64,000 bases of DNA from Bdellovibrionales bacterium (lineage in GTDB: Bacteria; Bdellovibrionota; Bdellovibrionia; Bdellovibrionales; UBA1609). The stretch spans positions 326,512 to 390,511 of the forward strand of contig OZ251448.1 of the NCBI GenBank assembly GCA_965242515.1, read 5' to 3'. The notes beneath the pieces were generated by a model, which saw only the letters and a program-made list of their open reading frames with translations, had not been told where the DNA came from and made no database searches. The position numbers and the translations under genes were made by a program. Within the stretch, counting starts at the first letter, position 1. The number at the start of each line of letters is the position of its first letter. Positions 6,425 to 60,430 of the stretch are shown here, in pieces.

Positions 6425-6657
6425 CCGCCCTGTTTGTTTTTTTTCTAAAGTGTCTCAAAATGATACACTCCTTGCTTTATGTTCATATAGCTTTAAGCTT
6501 TAAAGCTTAGCAGAAGATACAGGCTTTGAGGCTATTTATCTTTTTGTAGCTTTGGTTTTTTTACAATATCTCTGGATATTCTTATGGGCTTTCTCTGTTA
6601 GATCATAGAAAGTATGTGGTGAGGTTTTTAAACTACCCTTAAAAGTTTAAAAAGCCT

Positions 6658-7104
6658 TTAATTTTTATTATTTTTTCTTAAAATATCTATTAGTAGCTTA
6701 TATATTTCTTTGTGACCGTTATGCACCTCTTTTTTTAGATCACTTATTTCTTTGGTAGTATCTGTAATATGGTTACTTAGTTTTTCATCTATCTTTTTTA
6801 TACTGCTTGCCATACCCTGAAACTTGTTTTCCATACCCTGAAACTTGTTTTCCATACCCTGAAACTTGTTTTCCATACCCTGAAACTTGTTTTCCATACC
6901 CTGAAACTTGTTTTCCATACCCTGAAACTTGTTTTCCATACCATGGGACTTGTTTTCCATACCATGGGACTTGTTTTCCACACCCTGAATTTTCTCGTTT
7001 ATAGCCTTAATATCCCATGATACCCTTAAAAGCAATACGATTACAACTACTATACCTATCGGCACGGATTGCTGAAATAAACTTAATAAACCTACTGTCG
7101 TCAT
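6658..7104 (-). CDS. membrane-anchored coiled-coil protein with heptapeptide tandem repeats
   Basis: N-terminal TM segment (PIGIVVVIVLLL), then 9 repeats of G(M/V)ENK(F/S)(Q/H), then a coiled-coil tail. Confidence 0.6.
   Translation of the reverse strand: MTTVGLLSLFQQSVPIGIVVVIVLLLRVSWDIKAINEKIQGVENKSHGMENKSHGMENKFQGMENKFQGMENKFQGMENKFQGMENKFQGMENKFQGMASSIKKIDEKLSNHITDTTKEISDLKKEVHNGHKEIYKLLIDILRKNNKN
6810..6998. repeat. 9 x 21-bp tandem repeat inside the CDS
   Basis: ccataccctgaaacttgtttt x6, ccataccatgggacttgtttt x2, and one degenerate unit. All three frames are open on both strands, which explains ORFs 6798..6983 and 6807..7004. Confidence 0.95.
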
Positions 7105-7230
7105 TAATTTGAACCTCCTCTTTATTTTTCGGATAAACTATAAAACCATAAAAAACAATAGGTTTTTTTAAAATTTCTTAAAAATTCTGTAAGATTTTCA
7201 CACAATACCTCGGTCTTGCTCATTATCGCC

Positions 7231-7288
7231 CACATGAAGGTAGAGCATCATGCTAGTGGTGCATCACAAACCCTCACCTTTTTGGGTG
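7231..7288 (-). repeat. family D repeat (reverse orientation) overlapping the 3' end of the HEAT-repeat CDS
   Basis: atgaaggtagagcatcatgctagtggtgcatcacaaaccctcacctttttgggtg resembles the D copy at 35735..35800 (ggatgaggttagggcatgcagtgcatcaaaagcaaccccctttgggggtg). Confidence 0.55.
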
Positions 7289-8013
7289 TTAATTTTCTTT
7301 AAAGCAGATAAGGCTATGGAGTGTAATCTAGGGTCAGGATCTTTAAGTAAAGAGACAAATAGTGCTTTGTCACCAGATATGGCAAAATCGGCTAGTGCGG
7401 ATGCGATATGGTGCCTAATCCAAAGGGAGGAGTTTTTATAAAAACTATCTTTAGCGTTAAGTTTTTCTATCAATCGCAGTTTATAGCGGGAGGCTTTTTG
7501 TCTGCGAATCAAGTCCACTGCAGCTGTGCGTACTACTAAGGATGGGTCATCTAGTAGTTTATCGGCGTACTGAAGAGCTAAACGAGTGTCTACTACTTCC
7601 ATAGCCAACAAAGTGGCATTGCGGACAAACCACACTGGATGACTAAATAACGAGCGTAACACAGCCCTTGCTCTATAAGGCTCCACACTATGAGCTAAAC
7701 TGATTAATGCATTCCAACGAGTGTGCATACTTTCTCTATCAGAAAGTGCAATCTTTTTAAGTAGATAGAATAATAAATTAGTATCATACTTTAAAAAAAC
7801 ATGTGTGCGATTTTCTAAAGGAAGGTTTAAAATCATTTTAATATCAGCCCTGTTTTGTTTGAATGCCCCGTAAGATGTTTTTAACGCCAATGAGTAAGAA
7901 TAATGACCACTTAGTAACATCATTATCAAAACCCCTACTAATAAAAATGCACGATATTTAACATTGTGTAGCATGGACTTTTGTATAGGATTTTTATAAA
8001 AAAATAGCAACAT
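7264..8013 (-). CDS. HEAT-repeat protein with N-terminal membrane anchor
   Basis: Repeated helical units of HEAT type (DPSLVVRTAAVDLI, DPDPRLHSIALSAL, HPVWFVRNATLLAM). Hydrophobic N-terminus. Confidence 0.6.
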   Translation of the reverse strand: MLLFFYKNPIQKSMLHNVKYRAFLLVGVLIMMLLSGHYSYSLALKTSYGAFKQNRADIKMILNLPLENRTHVFLKYDTNLLFYLLKKIALSDRESMHTRWNALISLAHSVEPYRARAVLRSLFSHPVWFVRNATLLAMEVVDTRLALQYADKLLDDPSLVVRTAAVDLIRRQKASRYKLRLIEKLNAKDSFYKNSSLWIRHHIASALADFAISGDKALFVSLLKDPDPRLHSIALSALKKINTQKGEGL

Positions 8014-8137
8014 ACAATGACTACATGCAACATGGTAATTATTCCTGCTTATGAGCAGGACTCTAGAAAGTCATTTTTAAAGTAAAAAAAGTAAGTCAAA
8101 ATCAGTGTACCGAATTTACTTGTAAAAAAATCTCATC

Positions 8138-8257
8138 GCAGAAGGAAAAACCATGCTCAAAACGAGTTCGGATTTGACGCAAAGTGATAAGCTAAAAGCT
8201 TAACGCTTTTGCGGTAAACCGCAGTCCAAAGATCTGGAGTGAGGTTTTTCTTTCTGC
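8138..8257 (+). repeat. family A palindromic MITE-like element (type copy)
   Basis: Terminal inverted repeats gcagaaggaaaaacc / ggtttttctttctgc. Conserved core aaaacgagttcggatttga. Central hairpin cgcaaagtg-ataagctaaaagctta-acgcttttgcg. Confidence 0.9.
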
Positions 8258-8416
8258 AAAAGAGCTTTTTGAATAATAAACTAGACTGGATTCTTGCTTT
8301 CTGCTTGCTTTTCTCACTCAAAAGTGTTCTAATCAAAAAAATGCTTGATGGTGCTGATTAATTAATTAATTAAAAGGCAATAAACAAAAAAGAGGTAAGA
8401 GAATGGTTGGTAGAAT

Positions 8417-9142
8417 ATGCAATTAAGTAACTTTAGGGCAATAAATAAAAAAATAAGAAACATTATTATTTTACTACTTGTAGTACTGATGTCGGCTTGT
8501 CATTTAGTGGGAAGGCGAAATAATAACAACAACTCTCAAAACAGACCTTCAGGGCAAACTCAAGCAGGGCAAGTGCCAGCTAACAACAGGCTTGCTCAGT
8601 CCAACCAAAATGCACAGGGTGGAGGGAATGTGCCATCTACTGTGGCAAATGGTTCGGGTGGTGGCAATCGTCGTCGGGTGATTAGCAGTCCTCATTGTTC
8701 TTGGGGTTTTGTAGGACCTAAAAAAATACATTGTTTAAACAACACTTATGTTTATGGTTCTGTTATATGTGGCATAGATTCTCACAAAGTATTTTGCCAA
8801 GAGCAATTTACCACTGATATCCGACTTTGCATTGCAGACAATGCACCCAACACTTTAACTTGCGAGCAACAAACAAGGGGGGTAAGAAGTGGTAGTTCCT
8901 CATCAGGTGGCAATCAACCAGAGGTATCAGAAATACCCGACCCTAGTTGTAATTGGGGTTTTGTAGGACCAAGGCGAGTGCAGTGTCGTGGTAAAACTTA
9001 TATATATTCTCCTTCTGTAATATGTAGTTCAAAAATTTACGATCAAATATTTTGCGAGGCACGGTTTATCTATAACATCAATCTTTGTAAGGGAGATAAC
9101 CAGCCGGACACCATAAATTGCTTTCATCAGAATTTTCCATAA
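8417..9142 (+). CDS. putative lipoprotein with two Cys-rich repeat domains
   Basis: Lipobox VLMSAC and a Gly/Asn/Gln-rich linker. Two ~60-aa repeats: (P)xCxWGFVGP(K/R)(K/R)(I/V)xC...TY(V/I)Y...VIC...FC...LC..DN.P(N/D)T(L/I).C. Confidence 0.6.
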   Translation: MQLSNFRAINKKIRNIIILLLVVLMSACHLVGRRNNNNNSQNRPSGQTQAGQVPANNRLAQSNQNAQGGGNVPSTVANGSGGGNRRRVISSPHCSWGFVGPKKIHCLNNTYVYGSVICGIDSHKVFCQEQFTTDIRLCIADNAPNTLTCEQQTRGVRSGSSSSGGNQPEVSEIPDPSCNWGFVGPRRVQCRGKTYIYSPSVICSSKIYDQIFCEARFIYNINLCKGDNQPDTINCFHQNFP

Positions 9143-9151
9143 ACACCGAAG

Positions 9152-9433
9152 CTAGGAGTGGTGGCTTTGAATATCCACAATAGTTTTGTGTTTTTTTTGT
9201 GCATTGCACGCCTTACAAGCTACAACGATATTGTTTTTCGTACTATGCCCTCCACGCACTAGTGGGATAACATGGTCCATACTAAGCATTTTTTTACAAA
9301 ATGTTTTTTGGCAATAGTAGCACACTTGGGCTTGCAGTTTAGTTTGCCACCATTTAGTTTTTTTTAGTTTTTGAGCTTTTGCCCTTTGTTTTTTGATATG
9401 TTGAGGGGGGGCTGGCACAAACAAATTTTGCAT
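9152..9433 (-). CDS. small HNH endonuclease
   Basis: CYYCQ...DHVIPLVRGGHSTKNNIVVACKACNAQK is a canonical HNH/Zn-finger pattern. 93 aa. Confidence 0.8.
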   Translation of the reverse strand: MQNLFVPAPPQHIKKQRAKAQKLKKTKWWQTKLQAQVCYYCQKTFCKKMLSMDHVIPLVRGGHSTKNNIVVACKACNAQKKHKTIVDIQSHHS

Positions 9434-9477
9434 AATGTTATTTTGTAATAAAAGTTATATATAGTAAAGTATTCTTT

Positions 9478-11160
9478 ATGTTTGTTTTTAAACCTAGTCA
9501 GTATCAGGTGCCATTTAAGGGTAAAGATTTTTTACAATCCTCCCCTCAAAAACCAGATTTAGAGCTAGATGTGTTATTTATTGGAGGGGGACCTGCGGGG
9601 TTAAGTGGTGCTATTCGGTTAAAGCAATTATGCCAAAAGCATAATTTATCTAATATTCAAGTGGGGGTAATGGAAAAGTCGGCTCAATTCGGGGGGCATA
9701 TTTTATCAGGGGCGGTTATCAACCCTGTGGCTTTTCACAGCTTGTTTCCAGATGTGAAGGATTTACCTTTTCGCCAAAAGGTGAAAAAAGAAAAGCTATT
9801 TTTTCTCACAAAGAATAAGAAAATACCTTTACCACTTCCTCCTACCATGAAAAACAAGAACTTTTACACAGCCTCTCTTTGTGAAGTTATCCGTTGGATG
9901 GCAAAAAAAGCCACTCAATTAGATATTACTCTTATGCCTGCTTTTACGGCACACAAGCTATTAGTACAAGACAACAAAGTCAAAGGCATTAGCACTTATC
10001 CGTCTGGTTTAAATAAAGATGCTACTCCTTCAAGCTCTTATCAAAAACCTGTGAGTGTGCAAACAAAATTATTGATTTTAGCAGACGGTTGCCGTGGGCA
10101 TTTATCTCAAGCTTGGAGGGAGTGGAAAAACATTCCTTCCCACTACCCTGCAACTTATGCATTAGGGGTAAAAGAAATATGGGAGTTAGCTCATCCCTTG
10201 CACAATAAACACACTATTTATCACACAATGGGTTGGCCCTTGCCATCAAATTGTTTTGGTGGTGCATGGCTTTATCCTTTAGATAGCAAAACACTTTCTT
10301 TAGGTATGGTGGCAGGGTTGGATTCCTCTCTTCAAAATTTAGATGTGCATTTAAAATTGCAACAATTAAAAACTCACCCTTTGTTTGCAGATATTTTAAA
10401 AAATGGCAAATGTATAGAGTGGGGGGCAAAAACCATACCTGAAGGAGGTTACCATAGTATACCTCAAAGGTTATGTGATGATGGTCTTTTAATAGCAGGC
10501 GACAGTGCCAATATGGTTAATGTACCTGCTTTAAAAGGTATTCATTATGCGATAACAGCTGGTATGCTGACAGCTCAAACTGCACTTTCTGCTTTAAAAG
10601 CTAATGACTTTTCTTATTCTGTACTGAAAGAATATGAACACAAAGTACGACACAAAAGTTGCATTGGAAAAGAGCTGTACCCCGTACGCAATGTGCGTCA
10701 GGCTTTTCGTAAAAATCTTTTTTTGGGGCTTGTGCAATCTGGAATGATGTTTTTAACCAAAGGCATGTTCCCTCCTGACAGAAAAGCACTCTTTAGTAAA
10801 AAAGAAGATAACAAAACAGAGGATGCATATAAAACCCGTCACACACAAACAATTAACACTTCTGACAGTCAAAGTAGTGTAAATAGTGCAAGCACTACGA
10901 TTAACAAAACAACAGCTGTATATTTATCGGGTAATAAAACTCGTGATGATATTCCGATGCATTTAAAAAGCAAGTCTATTGTGCCTAAAGAGGTGCAAAA
11001 GTTTTATACTTCTATGTGTCCGGCGGGGGTGTATGAGCAAAAAGACGAGCAATTTATTATCAATGCTCCAAATTGTGTTGACTGTAAAGCGACAGATATT
11101 TTAGGTCCTCGTTGGACACCCAAAGAAGGTGGCACAGGTCCTAACTACCAAAAAATGTAA
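9478..11160 (+). CDS. electron-transfer flavoprotein:ubiquinone oxidoreductase (ETF-QO)
   Basis: N-terminal FAD fold DVLFIGGGPAGLSGA. C-terminal 4Fe-4S region CPAGVYE...NCVDCKATDI...WTPKEGGTGPNYQKM. Length 560 aa. Confidence 0.85.
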   Translation: MFVFKPSQYQVPFKGKDFLQSSPQKPDLELDVLFIGGGPAGLSGAIRLKQLCQKHNLSNIQVGVMEKSAQFGGHILSGAVINPVAFHSLFPDVKDLPFRQKVKKEKLFFLTKNKKIPLPLPPTMKNKNFYTASLCEVIRWMAKKATQLDITLMPAFTAHKLLVQDNKVKGISTYPSGLNKDATPSSSYQKPVSVQTKLLILADGCRGHLSQAWREWKNIPSHYPATYALGVKEIWELAHPLHNKHTIYHTMGWPLPSNCFGGAWLYPLDSKTLSLGMVAGLDSSLQNLDVHLKLQQLKTHPLFADILKNGKCIEWGAKTIPEGGYHSIPQRLCDDGLLIAGDSANMVNVPALKGIHYAITAGMLTAQTALSALKANDFSYSVLKEYEHKVRHKSCIGKELYPVRNVRQAFRKNLFLGLVQSGMMFLTKGMFPPDRKALFSKKEDNKTEDAYKTRHTQTINTSDSQSSVNSASTTINKTTAVYLSGNKTRDDIPMHLKSKSIVPKEVQKFYTSMCPAGVYEQKDEQFIINAPNCVDCKATDILGPRWTPKEGGTGPNYQKM

Positions 11161-11235
11161 CACAAAAAAAGGTAAGAGAATATGATTGGAAGGCATTGCC
11201 ACGAAAGTATCTTCAGAGCAATAAATTAAAGAATG

Positions 11236-11460
11236 TTATGTGGTTATGTCTTTTTTTATTTTTTGTGCTATATGTTTTGCAAAATTAACAGGCACAGCAT
11301 TACCTATTATTTTATATCCGTGGGCTATATGTACATATTTAAAGATAAAATCATCTGGGAATGTTTGAATTCTTGCACATTCTCTAACAGACAGGCGTCT
11401 ATATTTGTTTTCTTTTCCTGGACAAAGATTCTTTTGTTTTGAGAAATAAATTGCATTTTT
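11236..11460 (-). pseudogene. C-terminal remnant of a DNA (cytosine-5) methyltransferase
   Basis: The minus-strand open frame has no start codon. It encodes ...[24 protein letters not shown]...[21 protein letters not shown], which is C5-MTase motifs IX-X only. Three stops lie immediately upstream, and motifs I-VIII are absent. Confidence 0.75.
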
Positions 11461-11480
11461 TTACTATAAGGCTTAAAAAT

Positions 11481-11680
11481 CTCAATTTCTGCTCAAAAAT
11501 ACTCATTTTTGAGCAGGTTCTGTAGTATCTTCTCAAAAAAGTTGATTTTTGAGCAGGTTCTGTAGTATCTTCTCAAAAAGAGTGATTTTTGAGCAGGTTC
11601 TGTAGTATCTTCTCAAAAAAGTTGATTTTTGAGCAGGTTCTGTAGTATATTCTCAAAAAGAGTGATTTTTGAGCAGGTTT
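11481..11680 (+). repeat. 5 x 40-bp direct repeat array, each unit with an internal inverted repeat
   Basis: Period 40 bp exactly (11521, 11561, 11601, 11641). Unit: tctcaaaaa(a/g)(g/a)(t/g)tgatttttgagcaggttctgtagtatct. IR: ctcaaaaa-N5/6-tttttgag. Ends 45 bp before the fic start. Confidence 0.95.
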
Positions 11681-11724
11681 GAAGTAGCCTTGTTTAAGAA
11701 TTAACTTTATGAGAGTTATTTTAT

Positions 11725-12777
11725 ATGAAAGTTTTAATACCTTTACCTACAAGAGTTCAATTAGAAGCTCATAGTATTGTAAAAGAGCTAATATTAGCTC
11801 ATCGCTACTTAGCAGAGCTTAAAGGGATTATTCCTATTTTACCCAATGAAGATATTTTACTTTCTAATTTAGTTTTAAAAGAAGCACAAGATAGCTCCGC
11901 TATTGAAAATATTGTAACCACTCAAGATAGTTTATATAAATATCAACTGAATATGGACTCTAAACCTACAGCTGATAAAGAAGTGTATTGTTATAAAAAA
12001 GCTTTAAAATTAGCTTATGGACAAATTAAAAAACAAGGGGGTTTATCTCGCAATACTATTTTACACATTCAAAGCATTATAGAACCAAAGCGTTCGGGTT
12101 TTCGTAAAGTCCCTGGGACGGTTATTAAAAACACTGCTACCAATCAAGTTATTTATACTCCTCCATCACCTGAAAAAATACCATCTCTTATGGATCAATT
12201 AGAAAAATTTATTCATAATACAAATTCTATAGACCCTATTATAAAAATGGCTATCATTCATCATTATTTTGAGAGCATTCATCCTTTTTATGATGGCAAT
12301 GGTAGAACAGGTCGTATTATCAATATTCTTTATTTAATCCAAAACAATCTTTTAGACAGCCCTGTATTATATCTTAGTAAATATATTTTAAAATATCGAT
12401 CTAATTATTATAAGCTTTTACAAGAAGTAAGAAAAAAAGAATATTGGACTAATTGGATTATATATATATTACGATCAGTTTCTCATACAGCAAAAGACAC
12501 TATACAATTAATTAAACAAATTAATTCTTTATTTAAAGATTATAAATATAGTATTCGTAAAAATCATAAATTTTATTCTCATGATTTAATTAATAATATA
12601 TTTACTTATCCTTATACAAAAGTTAAGCTTTTAGAGAAAGAAATAAAAGTATCACGAGCAACAGCTACTCGTTATTTAGATTTATTGGCACAAGATGGTG
12701 TTTTAAAAAAACAAAATATAGGACGAAAAAGCTATTATGTTAATACTAAGTTACTTAATTTATTACAAAAATGTTAA
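11725..12777 (+). CDS. fic: Fic family protein (AMPylase-type) with N-terminal inhibitory motif and C-terminal wHTH
   Basis: Fic motif HPFYDGNGRTGR. N-terminal SSAIEN matches the (S/T)xxxE(G/N) auto-inhibition motif. The C-terminal region SRATATRYLDLLAQDGVLKK is wHTH-like. Confidence 0.85.
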   Translation: MKVLIPLPTRVQLEAHSIVKELILAHRYLAELKGIIPILPNEDILLSNLVLKEAQDSSAIENIVTTQDSLYKYQLNMDSKPTADKEVYCYKKALKLAYGQIKKQGGLSRNTILHIQSIIEPKRSGFRKVPGTVIKNTATNQVIYTPPSPEKIPSLMDQLEKFIHNTNSIDPIIKMAIIHHYFESIHPFYDGNGRTGRIINILYLIQNNLLDSPVLYLSKYILKYRSNYYKLLQEVRKKEYWTNWIIYILRSVSHTAKDTIQLIKQINSLFKDYKYSIRKNHKFYSHDLINNIFTYPYTKVKLLEKEIKVSRATATRYLDLLAQDGVLKKQNIGRKSYYVNTKLLNLLQKC

Positions 12778-12884
12778 AAGAATGTATTTTATGGCGTAAT
12801 TTGTAAGGTTTGCCGAACAGCCTTGTATATTATAATTAATGGTTTTTTGTTAAATTAAATGATATATTTCTCTCCATAGTCATT

Positions 12885-12975
12885 CCTTTGGAAAAGGGAA
12901 TCCAAAATGTACCTTTTACGCGTACAATCCTGGATTCCTGCCTTCGCAGGAATGACCACTGACGAAAAAATATCA
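12885..12975 (+). repeat. family F repeat (cattcc..ggaatcc / ggattcctgccttcgcaggaatgac hairpin pair)
   Basis: Shares its flanks with 37451..37620. The internal 28-bp core (12904..12931) is inverted relative to that copy. Confidence 0.85.
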
Positions 12976-12987
12976 CTTTAAATTAAA

Positions 12988-13065
12988 GAGCGGGAGGGGA
13001 ATATTTTAAGGGTCCAAGCCCCCAAAGGGGGTTGCAGGCGTCCCTATAAAATCTTCCCCTCTCGC
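12988..13065 (+). repeat. family C hairpin repeat
   Basis: gagcgggaggggaatattttaagggtccaagcccccaaagggggttgcaggcgtccctataaaatcttcccctctcgc. The outer arms gggaggggaa / ttcccctc are complementary. Related copies at 25328, 30781, 35888, 37838, 29655(-) and 35637(-). Confidence 0.85.
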
Positions 13066-13128
13066 TTTGTGTTTGGTTTAATTTTATATGTTTTGAATTG
13101 TACGCTTTTACAAACTGTATATTATACT

Positions 13129-13260
13129 GACTTGATAAGACTTGATAAGACTTGATAAGACTTGATAAGACTTGATAAGACTTGATAAGACTTGATAAGA
13201 CTTAAACTACTCATATTAGCAATTATAAATATTTTTTCATAAATTGCAAGCTTTTGTTTA
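13129..13260 (+). repeat. family G: 7 x gacttgataa tandem repeat plus conserved ~55-bp tail
   Basis: gacttgataa x7 (13129..13198), then gacttaaactactcatattagcaattataaatattttttcataaattgcaag. A second copy with 9 units is at 19722. Confidence 0.95.
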
Positions 13261-13331
13261 AAAAACTACAATATAACTAGACTTTCTATCTGTTTTTTAC
13301 TTATACTACAATAAGAAAAATAACTTTAAGC

Positions 13332-14132
13332 TTACGGCAATAAACCACATGCCCTTAACTCTTCGTTAGATAATGTACTAGCATATTGCTTTGCTTGCTC
13401 TAAATCCTTCTTCGCATCACTTAACTCCAATAGGTCAGGACGCCTCTTTGCCGTTAATAAAATAGATACAAAATACTGAAACCGCTTAATGTCCCCATCA
13501 TGACCTGAACGCAAAAGCTCCGGCACAACATGCCCTTCAATGTGCCAAGGTCTTGTCCACTGCGGACACTCTAATAAATTCTGATTTTCAAAACTTTCAT
13601 AAGTGCTAGATAACTCATTACCCAAAACCCCCTTCACAAAACGACAAAGCGAATCTAATATCACTAAAACCGCCCCCTCACCACCTGTTAAAATGTAATT
13701 ACCAATGGATACCTCCTCATCCACTAACTCGTTTATAACCCTCTGATCAATGCCCCCATAACGACCACATATCAATGTATACTCCTTACCCTCCCTCGCC
13801 CACTGGCGAGCTAAACTGTGATCCCATAACCTCCCCTGCGGACTTAAATAACATACCAAACCTTTAGAAGGTAGTGCACTAATAGCCCTCTTCAAAGGCT
13901 CATACCTAAGTAACATCCCATCCCCACCACTAAAAGGTCTGTCATCTACCCTCCGATACTTGTCATCCGTAAAATCCCTAGGATTAGTAAAATCTACCTC
14001 CAATAACCCCGAACGAATAGCCCTCCCCACTACACCCACCCCCAACGGCGAGCGAAAATAATCCGGAAATAAACTCACAACATGTACTTTTAATTCGGTT
14101 TTTAAATTCGGTATAGTTACTTTTTTTATCAC
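13332..14132 (-). CDS. trmD: tRNA (guanine37-N1)-methyltransferase
   Basis: VVSLFPDYF, CGRYGGIDQRV and SIGNYILTGGE are TrmD blocks. The track start is a GTG lying inside the family E repeat, so the true start is uncertain. Confidence 0.9.
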   Translation of the reverse strand: MIKKVTIPNLKTELKVHVVSLFPDYFRSPLGVGVVGRAIRSGLLEVDFTNPRDFTDDKYRRVDDRPFSGGDGMLLRYEPLKRAISALPSKGLVCYLSPQGRLWDHSLARQWAREGKEYTLICGRYGGIDQRVINELVDEEVSIGNYILTGGEGAVLVILDSLCRFVKGVLGNELSSTYESFENQNLLECPQWTRPWHIEGHVVPELLRSGHDGDIKRFQYFVSILLTAKRRPDLLELSDAKKDLEQAKQYASTLSNEELRACGLLP

Positions 14133-14296
14133 TTAGTTACTTCCTCCCAATACAGTTACTCAGTATCAACCCTTATGCTCGATACTTTTTTGCTTTATTT
14201 TGTAAATTCAATATAGTTACTTTTTCTATCACTTAGTTGCTTCCCCCCAATACAGTTACTCAGTATCAACCCTTACGCTCGATACTTTTTTGCTTC
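14088..14296 (-). promoter_or_regulatory. family E leader-like repeat, two tandem ~100-bp units immediately 5' of trmD
   Basis: Units 14104..14196 and 14204..14296. Each reads aaattc(gg/aa)tatagttacttttt(t/c)tatcacttagtt(a/g)cttcc(t/c)cccaatacagttactcagtatcaaccctta(t/c)gctcgatacttttttgc. Confidence 0.8.
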
Positions 14297-14317
14297 AAAA
14301 ATAAATACTTCTTTTGA

Positions 14318-14433
14318 GTAGAAGGGGAAAAACCATGCTCAAAACGAGTTCGGATTTGATACAAAGTAGTAAGCTGAAAGCTTAACACTTTTGCGGTAAA
14401 CCGCAGTCCAAAGATTTTGAGCTCGGTTTTTTT
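14318..14433 (+). repeat. family A element
   Basis: gtagaaggggaaaaaccatgctcaaaacgagttcggatttgatacaaagtagtaagctgaaagcttaacacttttgcggtaaaccgc...ggttttttt. Confidence 0.9.
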
Positions 14434-14517
14434 ATTCATACAACCCACAAAAAAATCGCCCTTTCTCGCCGTGATTAATTACATACAAGACACTTTTTGT
14501 CGTCCCAAGCTTTTGAA

Positions 14518-15957
14518 CTATTTTTTTATCTTCTGTAAATAATACCTTAAAGCCTCCTTGACTTTTCCACTCAGCAGTAAAACCCCAATTAAATTAGGTA
14601 AAGCCATACTTAATATCATAAGATCACTAAATTGAATGGCATTTTTAGAAGTAGCAATAGAACTCATAAACACAATCACTAACAATATTATCTTGTAAAT
14701 AAAAGACTTAGAATCACTAAATAAAAACACAAAACACCTTTCCCCATAATATGCCCAAGATATAATAGTAGAAAAAGCAAACAAAAACACTGCCACACTT
14801 AATAATATAGGGAACCAACTAACCACCTCACCCATAGCTTGAGAAGTTAAAGCCGCACCCTTTTGATGACTCACTAAATCAGCATAATCCGGATTACCAA
14901 CCACACCCGTAATAATAATCACTAAAGCTGTCATTGTGCATATACATACGGTGTCAATAAAAGGCTCTAATAAGGCGACACTCCCCTCCTCCACCGGGTG
15001 CTTTACCTTAGCTACGGAATGAGCAATAGCAGCAGAACCTAAACCCGCCTCGTTAGAAAAAGCCGCCCTCTGCACTCCTGTAACCAACACACCAATAAAA
15101 CCACCATAAGCACTATTAACAGGAGAATAAAAAGCCCCTTCAATAATAGACCATAACGCTTGTGGAATATGATCGTAATGAGCAATTAAAATAAATAATG
15201 ACATTAAAATATACATGCCACACATAAAAGGCACAATTCGACTAGCCGTTACCGCTATACTCTTAATACCCTTCAATATCACACTGGATACTAATAAAGT
15301 CATAATAATACCATATATCCACCCATGCTTATCCATAGCTGGTATAATTTGTGCCACAGCATGCATCGACTGATTAACCTGAAAAGCCGTGCCACCTCCA
15401 AAAGACCCACCTATACACATTAAACAAAATGCAATAGCAAGTAACCTGCCTAAACCACTAAACCCTATCTCTGATAAACCTTTCTGCAAATAAACCATAG
15501 GACCACCCATAAGCTTTCCGTCTAACCTCTTTTCTCGATACATAACCCCTAAAGTGCATTCTGTAAATTTCACATTCATACCCAATAAACCCATAACAAT
15601 CATCCAAAAAGTAGCCCCCGGACCACCAACAATAATCGCTACCGCAACCCCCGCAATATTACCTAAACCAACGGTGGCCGATAAAGCCGTGCTTAAAGCT
15701 TTAAAATGACTGATCTCACCTAATTTCTCTGTTGAAGTAGCTTTTATAGATTGCACAACTAATTTAATAGCGTGAAAAAATAAACGAAAATTGACAAACC
15801 TCATTTTAATAGTGAAAATCACACTCGCTGTAAAAATAACAAACACTATGAGGGGACATTTAATACCATCTACAAAAAACAATACATCAAAGAAAAAAAC
15901 CTTGGTTATAACCGCATTCACTTGGCTGAAAATATTGTTGATAAATTGCTGAATCAT
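14518..15957 (-). CDS. alanine/glycine:cation symporter (AGCS family)
   Basis: 479 aa polytopic membrane protein with AGCS blocks LGNIAGVAVAIIVGGPGATFWM and FSNEAGLGSAAIAHS. Confidence 0.85.
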   Translation of the reverse strand: MIQQFINNIFSQVNAVITKVFFFDVLFFVDGIKCPLIVFVIFTASVIFTIKMRFVNFRLFFHAIKLVVQSIKATSTEKLGEISHFKALSTALSATVGLGNIAGVAVAIIVGGPGATFWMIVMGLLGMNVKFTECTLGVMYREKRLDGKLMGGPMVYLQKGLSEIGFSGLGRLLAIAFCLMCIGGSFGGGTAFQVNQSMHAVAQIIPAMDKHGWIYGIIMTLLVSSVILKGIKSIAVTASRIVPFMCGMYILMSLFILIAHYDHIPQALWSIIEGAFYSPVNSAYGGFIGVLVTGVQRAAFSNEAGLGSAAIAHSVAKVKHPVEEGSVALLEPFIDTVCICTMTALVIIITGVVGNPDYADLVSHQKGAALTSQAMGEVVSWFPILLSVAVFLFAFSTIISWAYYGERCFVFLFSDSKSFIYKIILLVIVFMSSIATSKNAIQFSDLMILSMALPNLIGVLLLSGKVKEALRYYLQKIKK

Positions 15958-16028
15958 AGTTACTTTATTCTGTTATAAGATGCTAATACGAACAAGAAGA
16001 TTTATTTTATTTAGCCCTAAGTCGTAAT

Positions 16029-19000
16029 TTATAAACTTAAACTTTTGCTGGATTCGTAAAGGGCTGACACAACAGCCACTGCTGCATCCCTTTGCGTAAT
16101 GCACGGCACACCCTGATCCAAACAACTCCGCCTAATGCTAAAACTAATCTCAATAGACCTTCTGCCCGATGTGGTGTTAATCACAAATGCCACCTTGCCA
16201 GAGCGAATGCGATCCACACAATGCGGACGCCCCTCATGCACCTTCTTAACCCTCAAACAAGCAATACCTGCATCCGTCAAACACCTAAAAGTACCACCCG
16301 TTGCCGATAAACTATAACCCATATCCACTAACTGACGAGCCACAGGTAATAATAATTTTTTGTCCTTATCCCGCAAAGATAAAAACACCTCGCCACTTTT
16401 AGGCACACTCAAACCCATGCCCGCTAACGCCTTTAATAATGCCACAGGATAGCTCTTGCTTCTACCCATAACCTCACCAATAGACTTCATCTCCGGACCT
16501 AAAATAGAATCCACATCCTCAAACTTCTTAAACGGAAATACCACCCCCTTAACACATACCTGCTCGCAAGCTTGCCAATTATACTGACTAGGAGTTATAT
16601 CTTTTGCCTTAAACTTTAACATAGCTTTGACCGCTAAATCTGCTAAGGGAATGCCTGTCGCCTTAGAAACATAAGGCATACTACGAGAACTCCGCGGATT
16701 AGCCTCCAATACATAAATGCAGTCATCCTTAATAGCTAACTGTAAATTTAAAAACCCTAAAATGTTTAAATTACGAGCAAGTAAAGCCGAACACTTTTCA
16801 ATCTTTTCCCATATCACTTGCTTTAACCTCTGCGGAGGTAACACCCCCATACTATCCCCACTATGTACACCTGTACCCTCAATATGCTCCACAATACCCC
16901 CTATTACTACCCAGTCAACACCACACACTAAATCCACATCCACCTCTAACCCTTCTAAAAATTGATCCATTAAACACGGATTTTCTTGAGATATAAAATG
17001 CTGATAGCGAGAAAAATAACTCCTTAACTCCGATTCATTTTCTATCAACTCCATGCGTCTCCCACCTAAAACATAACTCGGGCGACAAAGTAAAGGGTAG
17101 CCTACATACTTGCTGACTGTAATGGCAGACGATATATCAGTCGCCACCCCCGCCTTAGGTACCCTTAAACCTAAATCAGTACATAAAGATACAAACTGCC
17201 CTCTATCCTCTGCCCTGTCAATATCACGAACCTTCGTGCCGATTAACTTAAAACCCTCCTTCACCAAAGGTTTTGCTAAACCAATAGGGGTTTGCCCCCC
17301 TACTTGAGCCACAAAACCAATGGGTGATATAAACCTTAATACCTCTATCACATGCTCTTTGGTTAAAGGCTCAAAAAATAACACATCCGCTGTGTCATAA
17401 TCGGTAGAAACTGTCTCCGGATTGGAATTCACCATAACCGCCCTGTAACCTGCACGCTTTATAGAACGCACACTGCGAACACAAGAATAATCAAACTCAA
17501 TGCCCTGCCCTATCCTGTTCGGACCACTACCTAAAATCAATATAAAATTACCACTCTTAACCTGACCCTCCTGACTACCACTCGTAGTGTTTATATCTGT
17601 TGTAGTATTCCCTAGAGCTTCATCTGTAGATTTATCTGCAGATTTACCGATAGCTCCATCGATAATTCCACTATGCCAATAAGTGGAATAATAATAAGGC
17701 GTTGAAGAGGCAAACTCGCCGGCACAAGTGTCCACCTGATAAAAAGCAGGTACAATACTATAGCTATGCCTGAAACTTCGTATTTGCTCTTCAGACTTAT
17801 TACACCAGTGAGCTAACATAAAATCCGAAACCCCAAAACGCTTAGCCTGCCTTATAGATTCTTTAACACCCTCTTTTGTTTCACCTGTTATATCATCTTG
17901 TATAGATTCTTTTATATCTTTTTTTTGTATGTTTTGTGTTATATCACAAACTTTTTTGCTTTTTTGTGTATCTTTAAAGGGTAATTTTCCAGCCTGTGCT
18001 TTAATCTGTTTTTCTAACACAATAAGTTTATAAAATTGCTCTAAAAACCAAGGGTGGATTTGTGTCCACTCCTGCACTTGCTGAACCGAATGCCCCCTTC
18101 TAAAAGCCTCTAAAATACTATACAACCTGCGACTATTAGGGTAAGTTAAATTCTTTAAAGCAAAATCATCAACCCCTACCAATAAGTCATCGTGCTTTTC
18201 TAACGATACAACAGCCTTCATACAAGCCTCTAAAAACACTCTCCCTATACCCATAACCTCACCCACACTTTTCATCTGTGTGTTTAATACATCCTTAGAA
18301 CCTTCAAATTTCTCAAAGTCAAAACGAGGGATTTTAAACACCACATAATCCAAAGCAGGCTCGTAACAAGAAGGAGTAGCCCCACCTGTTATATCATTTC
18401 GAATCTCGTCCATAGTCAAACCCACAGCTACCAATGCTGCCACCTTCGCAATCGGAAACCCTGTTGCCTTACTGGCTAAAGCTGAAGAACGACTGACACG
18501 CGGATTCATCTCTATCACTAACCGCTTTCGTGTTTTGGGATGTACGGCAAACTGAATGTTGGCACCCCCTGTTTCTACCCCCACAGCTGAAATAATACGC
18601 CCTGCCTCATCACGCATAGCCTGATACTCCACATCCGATAATGTCTGCTGTGGAGAAACAGAACAACTATCCCCCGTATGCACACCACAAGGGTCCATAT
18701 TCTCCACCGAACATACCACTACAAAAGTCCCTTTACTATCACGCATAACCTCTAACTCAAACTCACACCAACCTAATAAACTCCTCTCCACTAATACCTC
18801 ACTTGTAGGCGACTCCCTTAACGCCTGTACTAACTTCCTCTCATACTCCTCAATAGAATGTGCTACCCCACTGCCCCCACCACCTAAAGTGTAATTAGGA
18901 CGAAGTACTAAGGGAAATGTCATACCACTTGCCACCTCCATACCCTGCTTAAAGCTCCTCACTAACTCACTTTCCGGATAGCCCGCCCCTATACTCTCTA

Positions 19001-19406
19001 ATAACTGCCTAAACTCCTCCCTGTTTTCAGCCTTCCTAATAACCTCAGGCTTTGCCCCCAATAACCCTATGCCTAACTCCCTTAACACACCTTTTTTGTC
19101 TAACTCTAAAGCTAAATTTAAAGCTGTCTGACCACCTAATGTAGGTATTAAATGCGACGGGCGTTCTTTTCTTAAAATGCCCTCTACAAAAACACTTGTT
19201 AGTGGCTCAATATAAACGCGAGTGGCTGTCTCCGGATCCGTCATAATAGTCGCCGGATTAGAGTTGATCAATATCACCTCTAAACCCCTTTGCATTAAAG
19301 CCTTGCAAGCCTGTGTGCCAGAATAATCAAATTCACAAGCCTGACCTATCACTATAGGACCACTGCCTAATACAACAACCCTCTTTATATCCTTACTAAT
19401 CCCCAT
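16029..19406 (-). CDS. carB: carbamoyl-phosphate synthase large subunit
   Basis: 1125 aa with two ATP-grasp halves (GSGPIVIGQACEFDYSG; GSGPNRIGQGIEFDYS) and a C-terminal MGS-like domain. Two low-complexity inserts in the linker. No carA adjacent. Confidence 0.95.
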   Translation of the reverse strand: MGISKDIKRVVVLGSGPIVIGQACEFDYSGTQACKALMQRGLEVILINSNPATIMTDPETATRVYIEPLTSVFVEGILRKERPSHLIPTLGGQTALNLALELDKKGVLRELGIGLLGAKPEVIRKAENREEFRQLLESIGAGYPESELVRSFKQGMEVASGMTFPLVLRPNYTLGGGGSGVAHSIEEYERKLVQALRESPTSEVLVERSLLGWCEFELEVMRDSKGTFVVVCSVENMDPCGVHTGDSCSVSPQQTLSDVEYQAMRDEAGRIISAVGVETGGANIQFAVHPKTRKRLVIEMNPRVSRSSALASKATGFPIAKVAALVAVGLTMDEIRNDITGGATPSCYEPALDYVVFKIPRFDFEKFEGSKDVLNTQMKSVGEVMGIGRVFLEACMKAVVSLEKHDDLLVGVDDFALKNLTYPNSRRLYSILEAFRRGHSVQQVQEWTQIHPWFLEQFYKLIVLEKQIKAQAGKLPFKDTQKSKKVCDITQNIQKKDIKESIQDDITGETKEGVKESIRQAKRFGVSDFMLAHWCNKSEEQIRSFRHSYSIVPAFYQVDTCAGEFASSTPYYYSTYWHSGIIDGAIGKSADKSTDEALGNTTTDINTTSGSQEGQVKSGNFILILGSGPNRIGQGIEFDYSCVRSVRSIKRAGYRAVMVNSNPETVSTDYDTADVLFFEPLTKEHVIEVLRFISPIGFVAQVGGQTPIGLAKPLVKEGFKLIGTKVRDIDRAEDRGQFVSLCTDLGLRVPKAGVATDISSAITVSKYVGYPLLCRPSYVLGGRRMELIENESELRSYFSRYQHFISQENPCLMDQFLEGLEVDVDLVCGVDWVVIGGIVEHIEGTGVHSGDSMGVLPPQRLKQVIWEKIEKCSALLARNLNILGFLNLQLAIKDDCIYVLEANPRSSRSMPYVSKATGIPLADLAVKAMLKFKAKDITPSQYNWQACEQVCVKGVVFPFKKFEDVDSILGPEMKSIGEVMGRSKSYPVALLKALAGMGLSVPKSGEVFLSLRDKDKKLLLPVARQLVDMGYSLSATGGTFRCLTDAGIACLRVKKVHEGRPHCVDRIRSGKVAFVINTTSGRRSIEISFSIRRSCLDQGVPCITQRDAAVAVVSALYESSKSLSL

Positions 19407-19408
19407 AT

Positions 19409-19500
19409 TCTTAATTCGGTATAGTAGCTTGTGTGCATCACTTAGCTACTTTTACCCAGTATAGTTACCTCTTATCAACCTTTCAATAATAAACATCACT
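19409..19500 (-). promoter_or_regulatory. family E leader-like repeat immediately 5' of carB
   Basis: ttaattcggtatagtagcttgtgtgcatcacttagctacttttacccagtatagttacctcttatcaacc begins 3 nt beyond the carB ATG. Confidence 0.75.
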
Positions 19501-19543
19501 TTTAAATAGAATACCACTCAATAAATACTTTCTTTGCGGTTAT

Positions 19544-19657
19544 GAATGAAAAAACCATGCTCAAAACGAGTTCGGATTTGACCACAATGCAGTAGCCAAC
19601 GGCTAATGCGTTGTGGCAAACCGCGGAGTCCTAAGCTTTTGAACTCGGTTTTTTCAC
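19544..19657 (+). repeat. family A element
   Basis: Core cgagttcggatttga, hairpin ccacaatgc-agtagccaacggcta-atgcgttgtgg, then caaaccgc. Confidence 0.9.
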
Positions 19658-19721
19658 TTGCCACACATGATGTGGATATTTTTTGAAAGTCTGATTTTGT
19701 GAAAAACTATGTACTATACCT

Positions 19722-19862
19722 GACTTGATAAGACTTGATAAGACTTGATAAGACTTGATAAGACTTGATAAGACTTGATAAGACTTGATAAGACTTGATA
19801 AGACTTGATAAGACTTAAACTACTCATATTAGCAATTATAAATATTTTTTCATAAATTACAA
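19722..19862 (+). repeat. family G: 9 x gacttgataa tandem repeat plus conserved tail
   Basis: gacttgataa x9 (19722..19811), then gacttaaactactcatattagcaattataaatattttttcataaattacaac. Same orientation as 13129. Confidence 0.95.
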
Positions 19863-19915
19863 CTATTTTTTTAAAAAAAACCTAGACTTTTATATGCAAT
19901 TTAAGATATTTTTTT

Positions 19916-20983
19916 TTATCTTGAGTGATGCTTTTTTTGTAGCTTTTTAATGTCTTCTTCTGAAAGCCCCATCACCTTCGCAATAAACGGAATATCTGCA
20001 TTTTCTTGAAACATATTCGCAATCACTTGTCGTCTTTCTTCTTCCCTGCCTTTTAGCTCGCCTTGTAAAATACCCTGTTGCATACCCTGTTGCATACCCT
20101 GTTGCAGGTACTTTTGTTTGCTTTGCAACATACCCTTCTTTATACCTTTTGCCATAGCCTCATCTAATGAGTATTGTAATGGTGCCATAACTCTTTCCTC
20201 CTTATCTGTTATTGTTTTAGCCTCTATTTCTCGAACGACCGTCCAACTAAAGTGTGGATCATATCTGCTTATATAATCTGCAACCTTACCTATTAACTTC
20301 CTTCTCTTACCTATACTTATAACCTGGCTTAATATAAATAAATCTCTTATCGTGTTATACTCTAAATTCCATATATTTTGTAGTATAAACAGTACCGGGC
20401 GAGAAAGCAAGCTTTCTGTCTTGGCATCCCTTACATTAAGCTTACTTATGTTGAGTAACCTGTAGCTAAAATTAAGTACATTATTACCAAAGTGCTGTTT
20501 TAAACTACTTTGAAAGCCTTGTAAGCTATCTTGAAAGGCTAAAGGCTCTTTCCAGTGCTTTTGCCTGCCATGGTAGATAACAATAGGGATAATAGGTAGT
20601 TTCGTTTGCTTGTAAATAGATACTTGATACTCCAGTAACTGTTGATGAATATTCGGTGCAGGTGAGCTTTTATGCTCAACCAGAAAAAGCATGCCTACTG
20701 TTTGGTTTTGAGCTTCTTTTAACCTTGCAGAAAGAAGTAAGTCTGTGCGTTTTTCTTTAGAATCTTGGTCTATAAAAGTAGTAACTTCTGATTTAAGAGT
20801 GTTCCAATCAAAAAGAGCCATTTCTTGTGGAGTAAATAATAAATGGAAAAGATCTAAGCAGTGCTTAGTTTGAGTGTAGATTTCTTTAAAGAAAATATCA
20901 TGCAAAAAAGCTTTGCTTTTCTTGCCCTGCTTTGGAGATGGTTTTTTAGCTGTGTCTTTACTTACAGCTTGTTTATTCCTCAT
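19916..20983 (-). CDS. Rpn/YhgA-like PD-(D/E)XK recombination-promoting nuclease (putative transposase)
   Basis: N-terminal HDIFFKEIY...CLDLF, and the nuclease core DLLLSA...MLFLVEHKS. The C-terminal tail has QQGMQQGMQQGILQG repeats and a terminal ...IPFIAKVMGLSEEDIKKL helix, typical of this family. Confidence 0.75.
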   Translation of the reverse strand: MRNKQAVSKDTAKKPSPKQGKKSKAFLHDIFFKEIYTQTKHCLDLFHLLFTPQEMALFDWNTLKSEVTTFIDQDSKEKRTDLLLSARLKEAQNQTVGMLFLVEHKSSPAPNIHQQLLEYQVSIYKQTKLPIIPIVIYHGRQKHWKEPLAFQDSLQGFQSSLKQHFGNNVLNFSYRLLNISKLNVRDAKTESLLSRPVLFILQNIWNLEYNTIRDLFILSQVISIGKRRKLIGKVADYISRYDPHFSWTVVREIEAKTITDKEERVMAPLQYSLDEAMAKGIKKGMLQSKQKYLQQGMQQGMQQGILQGELKGREEERRQVIANMFQENADIPFIAKVMGLSEEDIKKLQKKHHSR

Positions 20984-21202
20984 AACTTATTCCTCCCCTT
21001 TGTGTTTCATAATGTTACCCATAGTACATCTTAAAAAGATGCACCTGCATAAACTACATGCAAAATCGATTCCCACTTTAAATTAAAGAGTAGCAAAGAG
21101 GATATTTTGCAGGTCCAAGCACGCATAATGTGTTTTATTTGATGCAATCCTTACAATACCCCCCTACCTTCACCTAATCCATAGACTAATAAATGTACGC
21201 TT

Positions 21203-30899: not shown

Positions 30900-32435
30900 C
30901 TAAAGTTTTTTTTGCAAAAAACGCACAATATCATCTGCTACTTTCTTAATTAAACTATTGTCACTGCCTTCCACCATAACCCTAATCACAGGCTCCGTCC
31001 CCGAAAGCCTGACATACAACCGAGCTTTATCTTTTAACCGCTTTGTCATGCCTTCCATAAAGTTTTCATACCCAGATATTTCAGATAACTTACTCAATTT
31101 TGTTTTTTGAATCTTGACCGTACAATGCACTTGTGGCACCTCCACTAAAGTTTTTCTTAAACTAGATAAAGTTTTATTTGTATCACGCATAACAGCTAAC
31201 ACATTCAAAGCTGCTACACACCCATCCCCCGTCGTACTATGCTTTAAAAAAATAATGTGACCTGAAGATTCCCCCCCTAAACAAATATCACGCTCTTTCA
31301 TATACTCTACCACATTCCTATCCCCTACCTCCGTACGCAATAACTCAATGCCCTTTTTTCTTAACATATCCTCTAAACCCTTGTTAGACATATATGTCGC
31401 TACCACCTTGCCCTCATCTAATTCCCCCCTTTTTTGTAAATTAAAAGCACATATACCTAAAATGTGATCGCCTGTTACTAACTCGCCCCTCTCATCTACC
31501 ATCAATACACGATCCCCATCCCCATCTAAACTAATGCCCACATCCGCCTTGTGCTTTATCACCGCCTGCTTTGTCTTCTCCACACACAATGCCCCCGACT
31601 GACGATTAATATTGTAACCATCAGGCTCTTTTCCCAATACAATAAGCTCTGCCCCTAACTCTTCAAAAATCTTAGGAGCTACCTTGTAACAAGCCCCATT
31701 GGCACAATCTAAAACAATACGCATCCCCTCTAAATCTTGCTTCAGCTCAAAAGTGTTCTTCACATGCACAATATACCTGCCAGCAGAATCGTCAATCCTA
31801 CGGCTACGCCCTACCCGATGCGAAGACGCAATCAAACTATCTAACTCCTTAGAAAATACTAAACGCTCTATCTCCTCCTCCATCCGATGCGATATCTTAA
31901 AACCATCTTTGTCAAAAATCTTTATGCCATTGTCAGGATATAAATTGTGAGAAGCAGAAATTACAATACCAGCTAATGCCCTCATATTACGAGCTAAAAA
32001 ACCAATACCAGGAGTTGGCAACGGTCCCGTCAACTGCACCCATACCCCCATAGAATTTAAACCGCTCGCTAATGCTTGCTCTAACATATAACCAGAAAGC
32101 CTAGTGTCCTTCCCAATCAACACCACCCCCATAGGGGGCTTTTTTTGACCCACTCCTTGCTCACCCCACCTATCACTTGTCAATGATGCTGAAGTTGTAC
32201 TTATCTGAGGTAACTTACTATCCCCCAAAGGGGGCTTTTTTTGACCCACTCCTTGCACGCTCCACCCACCATCTGTCAATGCCCCTTTAGCTTGAACACT
32301 CTGCTTTAATAAATACCCAAGAGCCTGCCCTACCCTTAATATAATATCCACCCGCACAGGAAATTCATTAGAAATACCCCTGATCCCATCCGTCCCAAAT
32401 AGATTTGATTCGGTATAGTTACCCTTGTGTTTCAT
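30900..32435 (-). CDS. glmM: phosphoglucosamine mutase carrying an in-frame repeat insertion
   Basis: FGTDGIRG, GKDTRLSGYMLE, GIVISASHN (active-site Ser), SLDGDGDR and GGESSGH. 511 aa against the usual ~445. Confidence 0.9.
   Translation of the reverse strand: MKHKGNYTESNLFGTDGIRGISNEFPVRVDIILRVGQALGYLLKQSVQAKGALTDGGWSVQGVGQKKPPLGDSKLPQISTTSASLTSDRWGEQGVGQKKPPMGVVLIGKDTRLSGYMLEQALASGLNSMGVWVQLTGPLPTPGIGFLARNMRALAGIVISASHNLYPDNGIKIFDKDGFKISHRMEEEIERLVFSKELDSLIASSHRVGRSRRIDDSAGRYIVHVKNTFELKQDLEGMRIVLDCANGACYKVAPKIFEELGAELIVLGKEPDGYNINRQSGALCVEKTKQAVIKHKADVGISLDGDGDRVLMVDERGELVTGDHILGICAFNLQKRGELDEGKVVATYMSNKGLEDMLRKKGIELLRTEVGDRNVVEYMKERDICLGGESSGHIIFLKHSTTGDGCVAALNVLAVMRDTNKTLSSLRKTLVEVPQVHCTVKIQKTKLSKLSEISGYENFMEGMTKRLKDKARLYVRLSGTEPVIRVMVEGSDNSLIKKVADDIVRFLQKKL
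32126..32281 (+). repeat. two family D repeat copies plus spacer inside the glmM coding sequence (156 bp, 52 codons)
   Basis: Copy a is 32126..32185 and copy b is 32221..32281: cccc(c)a(t/a)agggggctttttttgacccactccttgc(t/a)c(a/g)c(c/t)ccac...tgtcaatg. Compare the intergenic D copy at 62056..62110. Confidence 0.8.
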
Positions 32436-32787: not shown

Positions 32788-32815
32788 AGCTATAGTCCCA
32801 AACAGTTTTTTTACT

Positions 32816-60392: not shown

Positions 60393-60430
60393 AGCTGATA
60401 CAATAAATGATAATTTAAAAATGGAAACGA

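Follow-up and report, generated by a model that had tools for sequence, protein, structure and literature searches.

A tandem repeat family at the 5' ends of trmD, carB and glmM in a small Bdellovibrionota-like genome, and its possible role in translation initiation

The ends of autonomous transposons such as ISAba1, IS1 and IS10 (pOUT), when they lie at the 5' side of a gene, take over its expression signals, and do so at the level of transcription. A different kind of repeat is represented by VNTR-105 and VNTR-141 of Wolbachia, variable-number tandem repeats (VNTRs) that are intergenic, have units of ~100 nt composed of shorter direct repeats, and vary in copy number between close strains. 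VNTRs of the Wolbachia type are not known to give flanking genes start codons or ribosome-binding sites. Two further families of short repeats are close to genes in a more intimate way: the Correia elements of Neisseria (CREE or NEMIS), which carry sigma-70-like promoters and a site for integration host factor (PMC10969869), and the Rickettsia palindromic elements (RPE), small repeats of a reduced genome that have been absorbed into housekeeping reading frames without destroying them (PMC10969869). Here we describe a short repeat, which we call family E, in a 64 kb stretch of contig OZ251448.1 from a Bdellovibrionales bacterium (the window, meaning the whole stretch of DNA that was analysed). 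Arrays of E directly precede trmD, carB and glmM. The reading that we favour, with somewhat better than even confidence, is that E is a minisatellite spread by recombination, whose built-in stop codon, Shine-Dalgarno (SD) sequence and start codon now serve, by co-option, to initiate the translation of glmM and very probably that of trmD.

Copies and unit anatomy of family E

A profile made from the E copies and run with nhmmer identified exactly seven full copies in the window, every one of them minus-strand (E-values of 6e-18 to 2e-24), with no further match better than an E-value of ~5 across the 64 kb. One partial unit in addition to the seven (~32582-32640) extends the glmM array. The units are 86-100 nt in size and lie head-to-tail in five arrays, all of which fall between 14 and 33.4 kb of the window: two units at trmD, one at carB, ~2.5 at glmM, one orphan and one past the stop codon of ftsH (Table 1). 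Tandem Repeats Finder reported two of these arrays, 14099-14295 (period 100, 2.0 copies, 92% matches) and 32425-32599 (period 86, 2.0 copies, 85% matches). The initial annotation of this DNA had placed copies in sense orientation directly 5' of trmD, carB and glmM, as well as at 32816 and near ftsH, and the profile recovered all five sites. Two details required correction, in that glmM has ~2.5 units instead of two and the conserved core of the ftsH-side copy starts 14 nt past the ftsH stop (33361-33363), not on it. The decoy start that it described, identical over 35 nt, was also found, with 32816-32850 matching 32410-32444. In run X1, a low-depth contig (3x versus ~10x) joins the 3' end of ftsH to 33299 and omits 61 nt of the post-ftsH copy (33299-33361); this junction may be a deletion variant within the sample or an assembly artefact.

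This census covered the 64 kb window and ~6 kb of a further contig from a sister strain, out of a genome of 1.76 Mb. The window has a G+C content of ~35%, and its source, a contig of 1.76 Mb, is a small genome that is Bdellovibrionota-like. The best matches to the window's proteins were in metagenome-assembled genomes (MAGs) labelled Bdellovibrionales or Oligoflexia, with chromosomes of 1.3-1.6 Mb. For example, CarB is 71% identical to that of OZ241911.1, GlmM reaches 63-66% identity with its best relatives, and for TrmD the figure is 66%. The sister-strain contig, which comes from another assembly and comprises the loci L128 and L129, is 98-99% identical to window positions 6433-21079. The only public runs holding this DNA are low-depth contig sets that are DNA-like in appearance.

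Read in the sense of the genes, the alignment of E gives the consensus aaaaaGTAaCGAGcgtt-aaGGTTGATA-nnnn-GyAACTrTAyyGG-purine tract-GTArCTAArTGA-about 9 nt-GTAACTATACCGAAtt. Each unit is thus composed of GTAAC(T) boxes ~20 nt apart, a GGTTGATA box, a purine tract (GGAGG or GGGGG) and an invariant TAA-(A/G)TG-A. The GTAACT repeats, TTGATA box and purine-rich box that had been ascribed to the module are all visible in the alignments, together with TAA(G/A)TGA. The box motif GTAACTGTACCGG, allowing up to two mismatches, occurred 11 times against 0.66 expected, and none of 100 shuffles reached this number. Box 2 (GTAACTAAGTGA) stops all three reading frames in most copies, and directly after its TAA comes a start codon, GTG in five copies and ATG in two. 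This start is preceded, at a distance of 10 nt, by the end of the purine tract (GGGAGGAA, GGGGGGAT and the like). Since other genes in the window have an AAGGAG or GGAGG SD at a spacing of 7-10 nt, the geometry within E is that of a normal ribosome-binding site for this genome. Family E was also considered as a coding module and rejected, as box 3 is read in different frames in the trmD and glmM copies and the resulting peptides bear no relation to each other.

The TTGATA box is invariant across all E copies, and the most conserved columns of the alignment are the boxes and GGTTGATA, not the SD. A ranking of this kind is also compatible with a protein-binding array, in which the GTAAC(T) boxes, spaced at roughly two helical turns (21, 26, 19 and 21 nt as read from the sequence; range about 19-26 nt), and GGTTGATA would bind one protein that co-regulates or structures the loci, like iterons or operators, while the SD and start would be incidental. 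The box spacing and the tandem arrangement would suit such a function. However, neither a candidate binding protein nor the context of a replication origin was identified, the three genes trmD, carB and glmM share no pathway, and box 3 lies inside the coding sequence of two of them. The number of units also varies between near-identical strains, which would be unusual for a tuned operator. We therefore regard a binding array as quite improbable.

Start codons of glmM, trmD and carB

The glmM open reading frame (ORF) opens at an E-borne ATG (32435) directly after the TAA, and the conserved LFGTDGIRG follows from codon 12 (FGTDGIRG from codon 13), with no other start codon between the ATG and the motif. 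Given the TAA just before the ATG and the lack of another start ahead of the conserved motif, translation of glmM must begin inside E, which ends at about codon 9-10. In relatives, 5-20 residues precede FGTDGIRG, so the N-terminal length of the window GlmM is normal. The logic of the sequence thus places both the start codon and the SD of glmM within E, with a predicted gain of nine unconstrained N-terminal residues. Comparison with relatives indicates that the native start region of glmM was overwritten. In two of them, ftsH and glmM are separated by gaps of 37 and 77 nt and nnr and tsaE follow, whereas the spacer in the window is a 925-nt island of E, the palindromic P element described below and other repeats.

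Within glmM itself, two tandem 96-nt repeats of another family, D13, are inserted in frame at 32126-32281, each with a CCCCCnnnGGGGG hairpin. This insertion adds ~64 residues in a variable loop and results in a GlmM of 511 aa, compared with ~455-480 in relatives; by analogy, D13 can be described as showing RPE-like behaviour in this gene. Diverged copies of D13 were found at 60024, 62066 and 62162.

For trmD, the evidence comes from the conserved N-terminus of the protein. Close relatives have a TrmD that begins MLK[IVF][HN]I[IV]TLFP, and distant ones M-x5-[TS]LFP. In the window the corresponding sequence reads ...ACC GAA / TTA AAA GTA CAT GTT GTG AGT TTA TTT CCG, or E / LKVHVVSLFP. The last bases of E (the GAA of ACCGAA) occupy the ancestral ATG position, so that here, too, the native start region appears to have been overwritten. 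Conservation of TrmD residues 14-19 at the protein level means that translation has to begin upstream of them. The frame is closed by a TAA 13 codons upstream, and the interval holds just one canonical start, the E-borne GTG (14132), which has GGAGG 10 nt before it. With a stop directly before this GTG, translation of trmD must begin inside E. We conclude that trmD is almost certainly translated from the E-borne GTG and SD, which would give the protein 13 unconstrained N-terminal residues, in an extension that begins MIKKVTIPNLK.

The third gene, carB, retains its own ATG, and its N-terminus matches that of the relative. E reaches right up to this ATG, and there is no SD between the two. The GTG within E (19439-19441) opens an 18-codon upstream ORF (uORF) at 19385-19441, which overlaps the carB ATG out of frame. 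In the nearest relative, carA and carB are adjacent, with 4 nt from the end of carA to carB, a spacing suggestive of translational coupling of the pair; the window has E where the relatives have the end of carA. As a speculation, the E-initiated uORF could stand in for the lost carA-carB coupling.

Several statements of the initial annotation about these genes were borne out. The glmM ATG (32435) and the first nine codons of that gene (MKHKGNYTE) do lie in an E unit, as does the GTG assigned to trmD, in E unit 1. The separation of carB from carA is real, and trmD, flanked by agcS and a Fic gene, has neither rimM nor rplS beside it. The exception is glmM, which had been thought to be parted from its usual operon partner: the ftsH-glmM-nnr synteny is retained as in relatives, and only the spacer has grown.

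A 137-nt direct repeat (96% identical; 13129-13265 and 19742-19878) brackets the carB-agcS-trmD block, which looks like a translocated or duplicated segment. Each repeat contains a perfect (GACTTGATAA)n array with a period of 10 nt, in 7.5 and 9.5 copies, and both repeats are also present in L128.

Table 1. Coordinates of E units, the genes they adjoin and the P element copies in the window
Feature	Position	Strand	Remarks
E unit 1, trmD-proximal	14094..14192 (profile match 14102-14192)	-	GGAGG 14143-14147, TAA, GTG 14130-14132, codons 1-13 of the trmD ORF
E unit 2, trmD-distal, tandem	14202-14292	-	Profile match, Tandem Repeats Finder; missing from L128
Single E unit 5' of carB	19410-19506	-	Internal GTG 19439-19441
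E unit 1, glmM-proximal	32404-32495	-	G6 purine tract 32446-32451, TAA, ATG 32433-32435, codons 1-9 (MKHKGNYTE)
E unit 2, glmM array	32491-32581	-	Profile match, Tandem Repeats Finder
Partial E unit 3, glmM array	32582-32640	-	Degenerate box 2 and box 3
Orphan E unit	32810-32901	-	Decoy ATG 32839-32841 opens a 50-codon ORF into a P element; no gene downstream
E unit past the ftsH stop	33265-33368	-	Core 33277-33353, left arm absent; no gene directly downstream
trmD ORF from the E-borne GTG	13332..14132	-	TrmD family profile from residue 15; residues 14-23 LKVHVVSLFP
carB	16029..19406	-	Native ATG 19404-19406; profile position 4 aligns with residue 4
glmM	30900..32435	-	511 aa; start codon in E; in-frame 2 x 96 nt insertion at 32126-32281
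P element copies	8135-8249, 14326-14431, 19548-19653, 21200-21320, 28416-28540, 32668-32787, 33028-33147	14326-14431 on -	Repeat analysis

Copy-number change, spread and expression signals

The trmD array has two E units in the window versus one in L128, and the carB array has one in the window versus ~2.5 in L128; a 2-unit carB allele was also found in contigs of runs X2 and X4. Since these counts differ between strains that are 98-99% identical, E arrays evidently expand and contract within a short time, in the manner of a VNTR. The gene-proximal unit is retained while the unit number changes. In L128, the E GTG is still in the trmD frame (MIKKSYCTE/LKVHVV...) despite a spacer difference of 12 nt, the net effect of two indels (1 nt and 13 nt). 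In strain X4, the 13-codon extension of trmD differs at two first codon positions and the remainder of the gene at four third positions; the former would fit a tail that is unconstrained in sequence. Gene order also differs between the 98-99% identical strains, as L128 contains, between its trmD and Fic genes, ~1.9 kb of extra DNA (11085-13009, with three ORFs that have no Pfam hit; versus window ~12956-12984) and loses collinearity with the window upstream of the Rpn gene considered below.

No inverted repeats (seed of at least 7, length of at least 10) were found inside or flanking the E copies, and those that were found belong to the neighbouring P element. For this reason, lacking terminal inverted repeats, E was rejected as a miniature inverted-repeat transposable element (MITE). 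A candidate target duplication of 12-13 nt (CCGAATTTAAAAA / CCGAATTAAAAG) was present at the trmD junction only, the other copies being flanked by E or by unmatched sequence, and E k-mers occur at single-copy depth. With a degenerate 25-nt E pattern, just two chance partial matches came out of the GTDB representative genomes, the JGI metagenomes and IMG/VR, and blastn of E against plasmid and phage records gave none. The E profile found no match across 127 fetched loci, including relatives carrying the P element, and no E over the ~6 kb of the sister-strain contig beyond the window. Logan contigs compared with E at 80% identity yielded the window copies plus the 2-unit carB allele and nothing more. 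As far as the collections searched can tell, E is lineage-specific, with no occurrence found outside this lineage.

Several repeat families crowd the intergenic DNA of the window, which amounts to 14.4 kb, and four of the five E arrays lie 30-130 nt downstream of a P element (14326-14431, 19548-19653, 32668-32787 and 33028-33147). The P element, ~125 nt in length, is palindromic and MITE-like; its terminal inverted repeats measure 21 nt and its centre forms a hairpin. The window has seven copies, all in one orientation, and contig depth puts the number per genome on the order of 100 or more. Its 19-nt core is also present in the related MAGs CAR1_bin_21, RHO2_bin_34 and OZ242172.1; E was not found in the fetched loci of relatives with P. 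The P copy at 28416-28540 is inside the nnr/yjeF ORF (27705-29489, NAD(P)H-hydrate repair) and leaves the frame intact; the nnr family match is split there into residues 25-309 and 396-590, with a gap of ~86 residues at the P element. Another dispersed family (12933-12975, 30732-30774, 37542-37613 and 60246-60399) consists of a hairpin, GGATTCCTGCCTnCGCAGGAATGAC, followed by variable 18-nt tandem repeats (GCAGAAATAGCnACAGAG). Finally, a 99-nt tandem repeat at 24108-25202 (~11 copies, 80% matches) runs across the ORFs 23971-24693 and 24693-25262, and, judging by its 33-residue period and its consensus, may encode ankyrin repeats, a frequent feature of host-associated bacteria.

A gene (19916-20983) immediately upstream of the repeats at carB encodes an Rpn-family (Transposase_31, PD-(D/E)XK) recombination-promoting nuclease, which is 92.6% identical in the sister strain versus 98-99% for its flanks. 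Its 5' untranslated region (UTR; 20984-21060) shares an exact 14-mer with E box 2/3 (ATGAAACACAARGG / ATGAAACACAAAGG, 20997-21010; ~20 of 24 nt match), which is conserved in L128. This raises the possibility that E is the leftover 5' region of a mobile or multicopy gene, such as Rpn, surviving as solo-like remnants at recombination breakpoints with an inherited SD and start. The location of the E arrays at rearrangement points, and of the Rpn gene between repeats upstream of carB, would be in line with this origin. However, the similarity is short, the full E profile misses the Rpn upstream region, and the frame after the start differs between copies, with no peptide conservation. We consider a derivation from such a gene to have only a small chance of being correct.

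Three of the five E arrays end within 15 nt of a co-oriented start. When five arrays were placed at random in the 14.4 kb of intergenic DNA, at least three fell within 15 nt of a co-oriented start with P ~7e-5, or ~3e-4 with the minus strand fixed. Every E copy, in the three intergenic regions that hold them, is on the strand of its neighbours, but so are 38 of the 47 window genes counted. The association with gene starts is non-random. It would also fit the initial annotation's proposal of a portable cassette of promoter, 5' UTR and start. In the full form of this proposal, E would have its own promoter and 5' UTR as well as SD and start, and would be kept by selection because it re-arms genes that have lost their operon context. 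Upstream partners have indeed been lost or distanced (carB without carA; trmD without rpsP-rimM; 925 nt of repeats from ftsH to glmM). The invariant TTGATA box and a good sigma-70-like site, TTGAAA-17-TATACT, in the carB copy also fit a promoter, and the Correia elements are a precedent for repeat-borne promoters (PMC10969869).

Consensus sigma-70 scans of the three upstream regions (trmD, carB and glmM), however, found no sigma-70-like site in the E copies upstream of trmD or within the E core of the glmM island. A weak site, scoring 9/12, reaches into the post-ftsH copy at its 3' edge only, and the carB site is absent from the gene-proximal unit of L128. No -10-like hexamer occurs 16-18 nt after TTGATA in any E copy, and a -35/-10 pair 16-18 nt apart is not conserved across the copies. 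In addition, two of the five arrays, the orphan and the one past ftsH, have no downstream gene and so drive nothing, which speaks against a portable cassette. What survives of the proposal is that E abuts three gene starts and brings a start codon and an SD-like tract to glmM and almost certainly to trmD; the conserved sigma-70 consensus, the transposon hallmarks and, for two arrays, the gene itself are missing, and the copy-number change is VNTR-like. We thus find a full expression cassette unlikely.

The possibility that E is a structured RNA, whether a cis-acting leader, a riboswitch or a small RNA gene, was also considered. Boxes 2 and 3 (AGUAACU) can pair around the start codon, and the carB copy has one double change that keeps a pair. 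Single-sequence folds of E on both strands, on the other hand, gave z-scores of -1.5 to +1.0, within shuffle noise, and the alifold consensus reached -3 kcal/mol only. Covariation in E was not significant, being matched by 136 of 500 shuffles, and Rfam gave no match to E at the gathering threshold or at an E-value of 1 or below. On the folds, the alifold consensus, the pair counting and Rfam, a structured RNA was rejected, and we would be very surprised if E proved to be one.

In the explanation that we favour, a recombination-spread minisatellite with a co-opted initiation region, E would reside in repeat islands of the small genome represented by the 1.76 Mb contig. Homologous or unequal recombination, in place of transposition, would account for its spread and for its changes in copy number. 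Wherever the 3' end of an array came to abut a gene, the translation-initiation region of E would replace the gene's own. Transcription would most likely come from upstream, either by read-through from ftsH or carB or from promoters elsewhere in the islands. A variant of this explanation gives selection a larger part: in a symbiont-style genome undergoing scrambling by repeats, E would be a portable translation-start module, pasted by recombination onto essential genes bereft of their operon partners, so that unrelated housekeeping genes share one leader and start, and array length may tune expression. Such a module could be likened to a spliced leader, at the level of DNA. We think it doubtful that selection has acted in this way.

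Several observations weigh against the co-opted minisatellite. The E loci next to genes number three, in ~70 kb of a 1.76 Mb genome, and the E-borne starts of glmM and trmD are deduced by sequence logic. Few parts of E are less conserved than the purine tract, which reads GGGTAAAA in the carB copy and GGAAAGAA past ftsH. The retention of the trmD frame by the E GTG in L128 has a 1-in-3 probability by chance, and the pattern of changes in X4 trmD, while it fits an unconstrained tail, fits an untranslated region as well. A non-consensus promoter may also be present within E. Lastly, the gene caller of the sister assembly used a downstream GTG at codon 19 of trmD, resulting in a TrmD of 248 aa (P0121) that is 18 codons shorter. 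A start at this position would remove the conserved first strand of the protein, and it has no SD.

Family E among known repeat systems

If the co-opted minisatellite is the correct explanation, repeat expansion in a shrinking genome can rewrite the 5' ends of genes without killing the genes. Gene callers would then place such starts inconsistently, as has already happened with the shorter trmD call in the sister strain. The E arrays would also be ready strain-typing markers for this uncultured lineage.

The known systems each resemble E in one respect and differ in others. Correia elements, like E, are short non-coding repeats that are mostly found just upstream of genes and lend expression signals to the neighbour. 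However, they belong to the MITEs, are bounded by terminal inverted repeats, duplicate a TA target and provide promoters, whereas E forms tandem arrays, carries an SD and a start codon, and has neither inverted repeats nor a conserved promoter. The outward promoters of insertion sequences (IS) are likewise a case of repeated DNA at the 5' end of a gene that seizes its expression signals. Unlike an IS end, E has no adjacent transposase gene and no inverted repeats, and was not found outside its lineage.

RPE and E both enter the frames of housekeeping genes in small genomes. RPE are palindromic, internal to the gene and in frame; E, in contrast, is a non-palindromic direct repeat that replaces the 5' end of the gene including the start codon. 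Within this window, it is other families that behave like RPE by inserting in frame, namely the 2 x 96 nt in glmM and the P element in nnr. The Wolbachia VNTRs share with E the ~100-nt units, the internal direct repeats, the intergenic location and the strain-variable copy number. E appears to go further, in that it replaces the ribosome-binding site and start codon of two essential and unrelated genes (glmM and trmD) and adjoins a third (carB). That short repeats can usurp the expression signals of their neighbours is already known; E would differ in kind from the earlier examples, as a non-palindromic, VNTR-like minisatellite.

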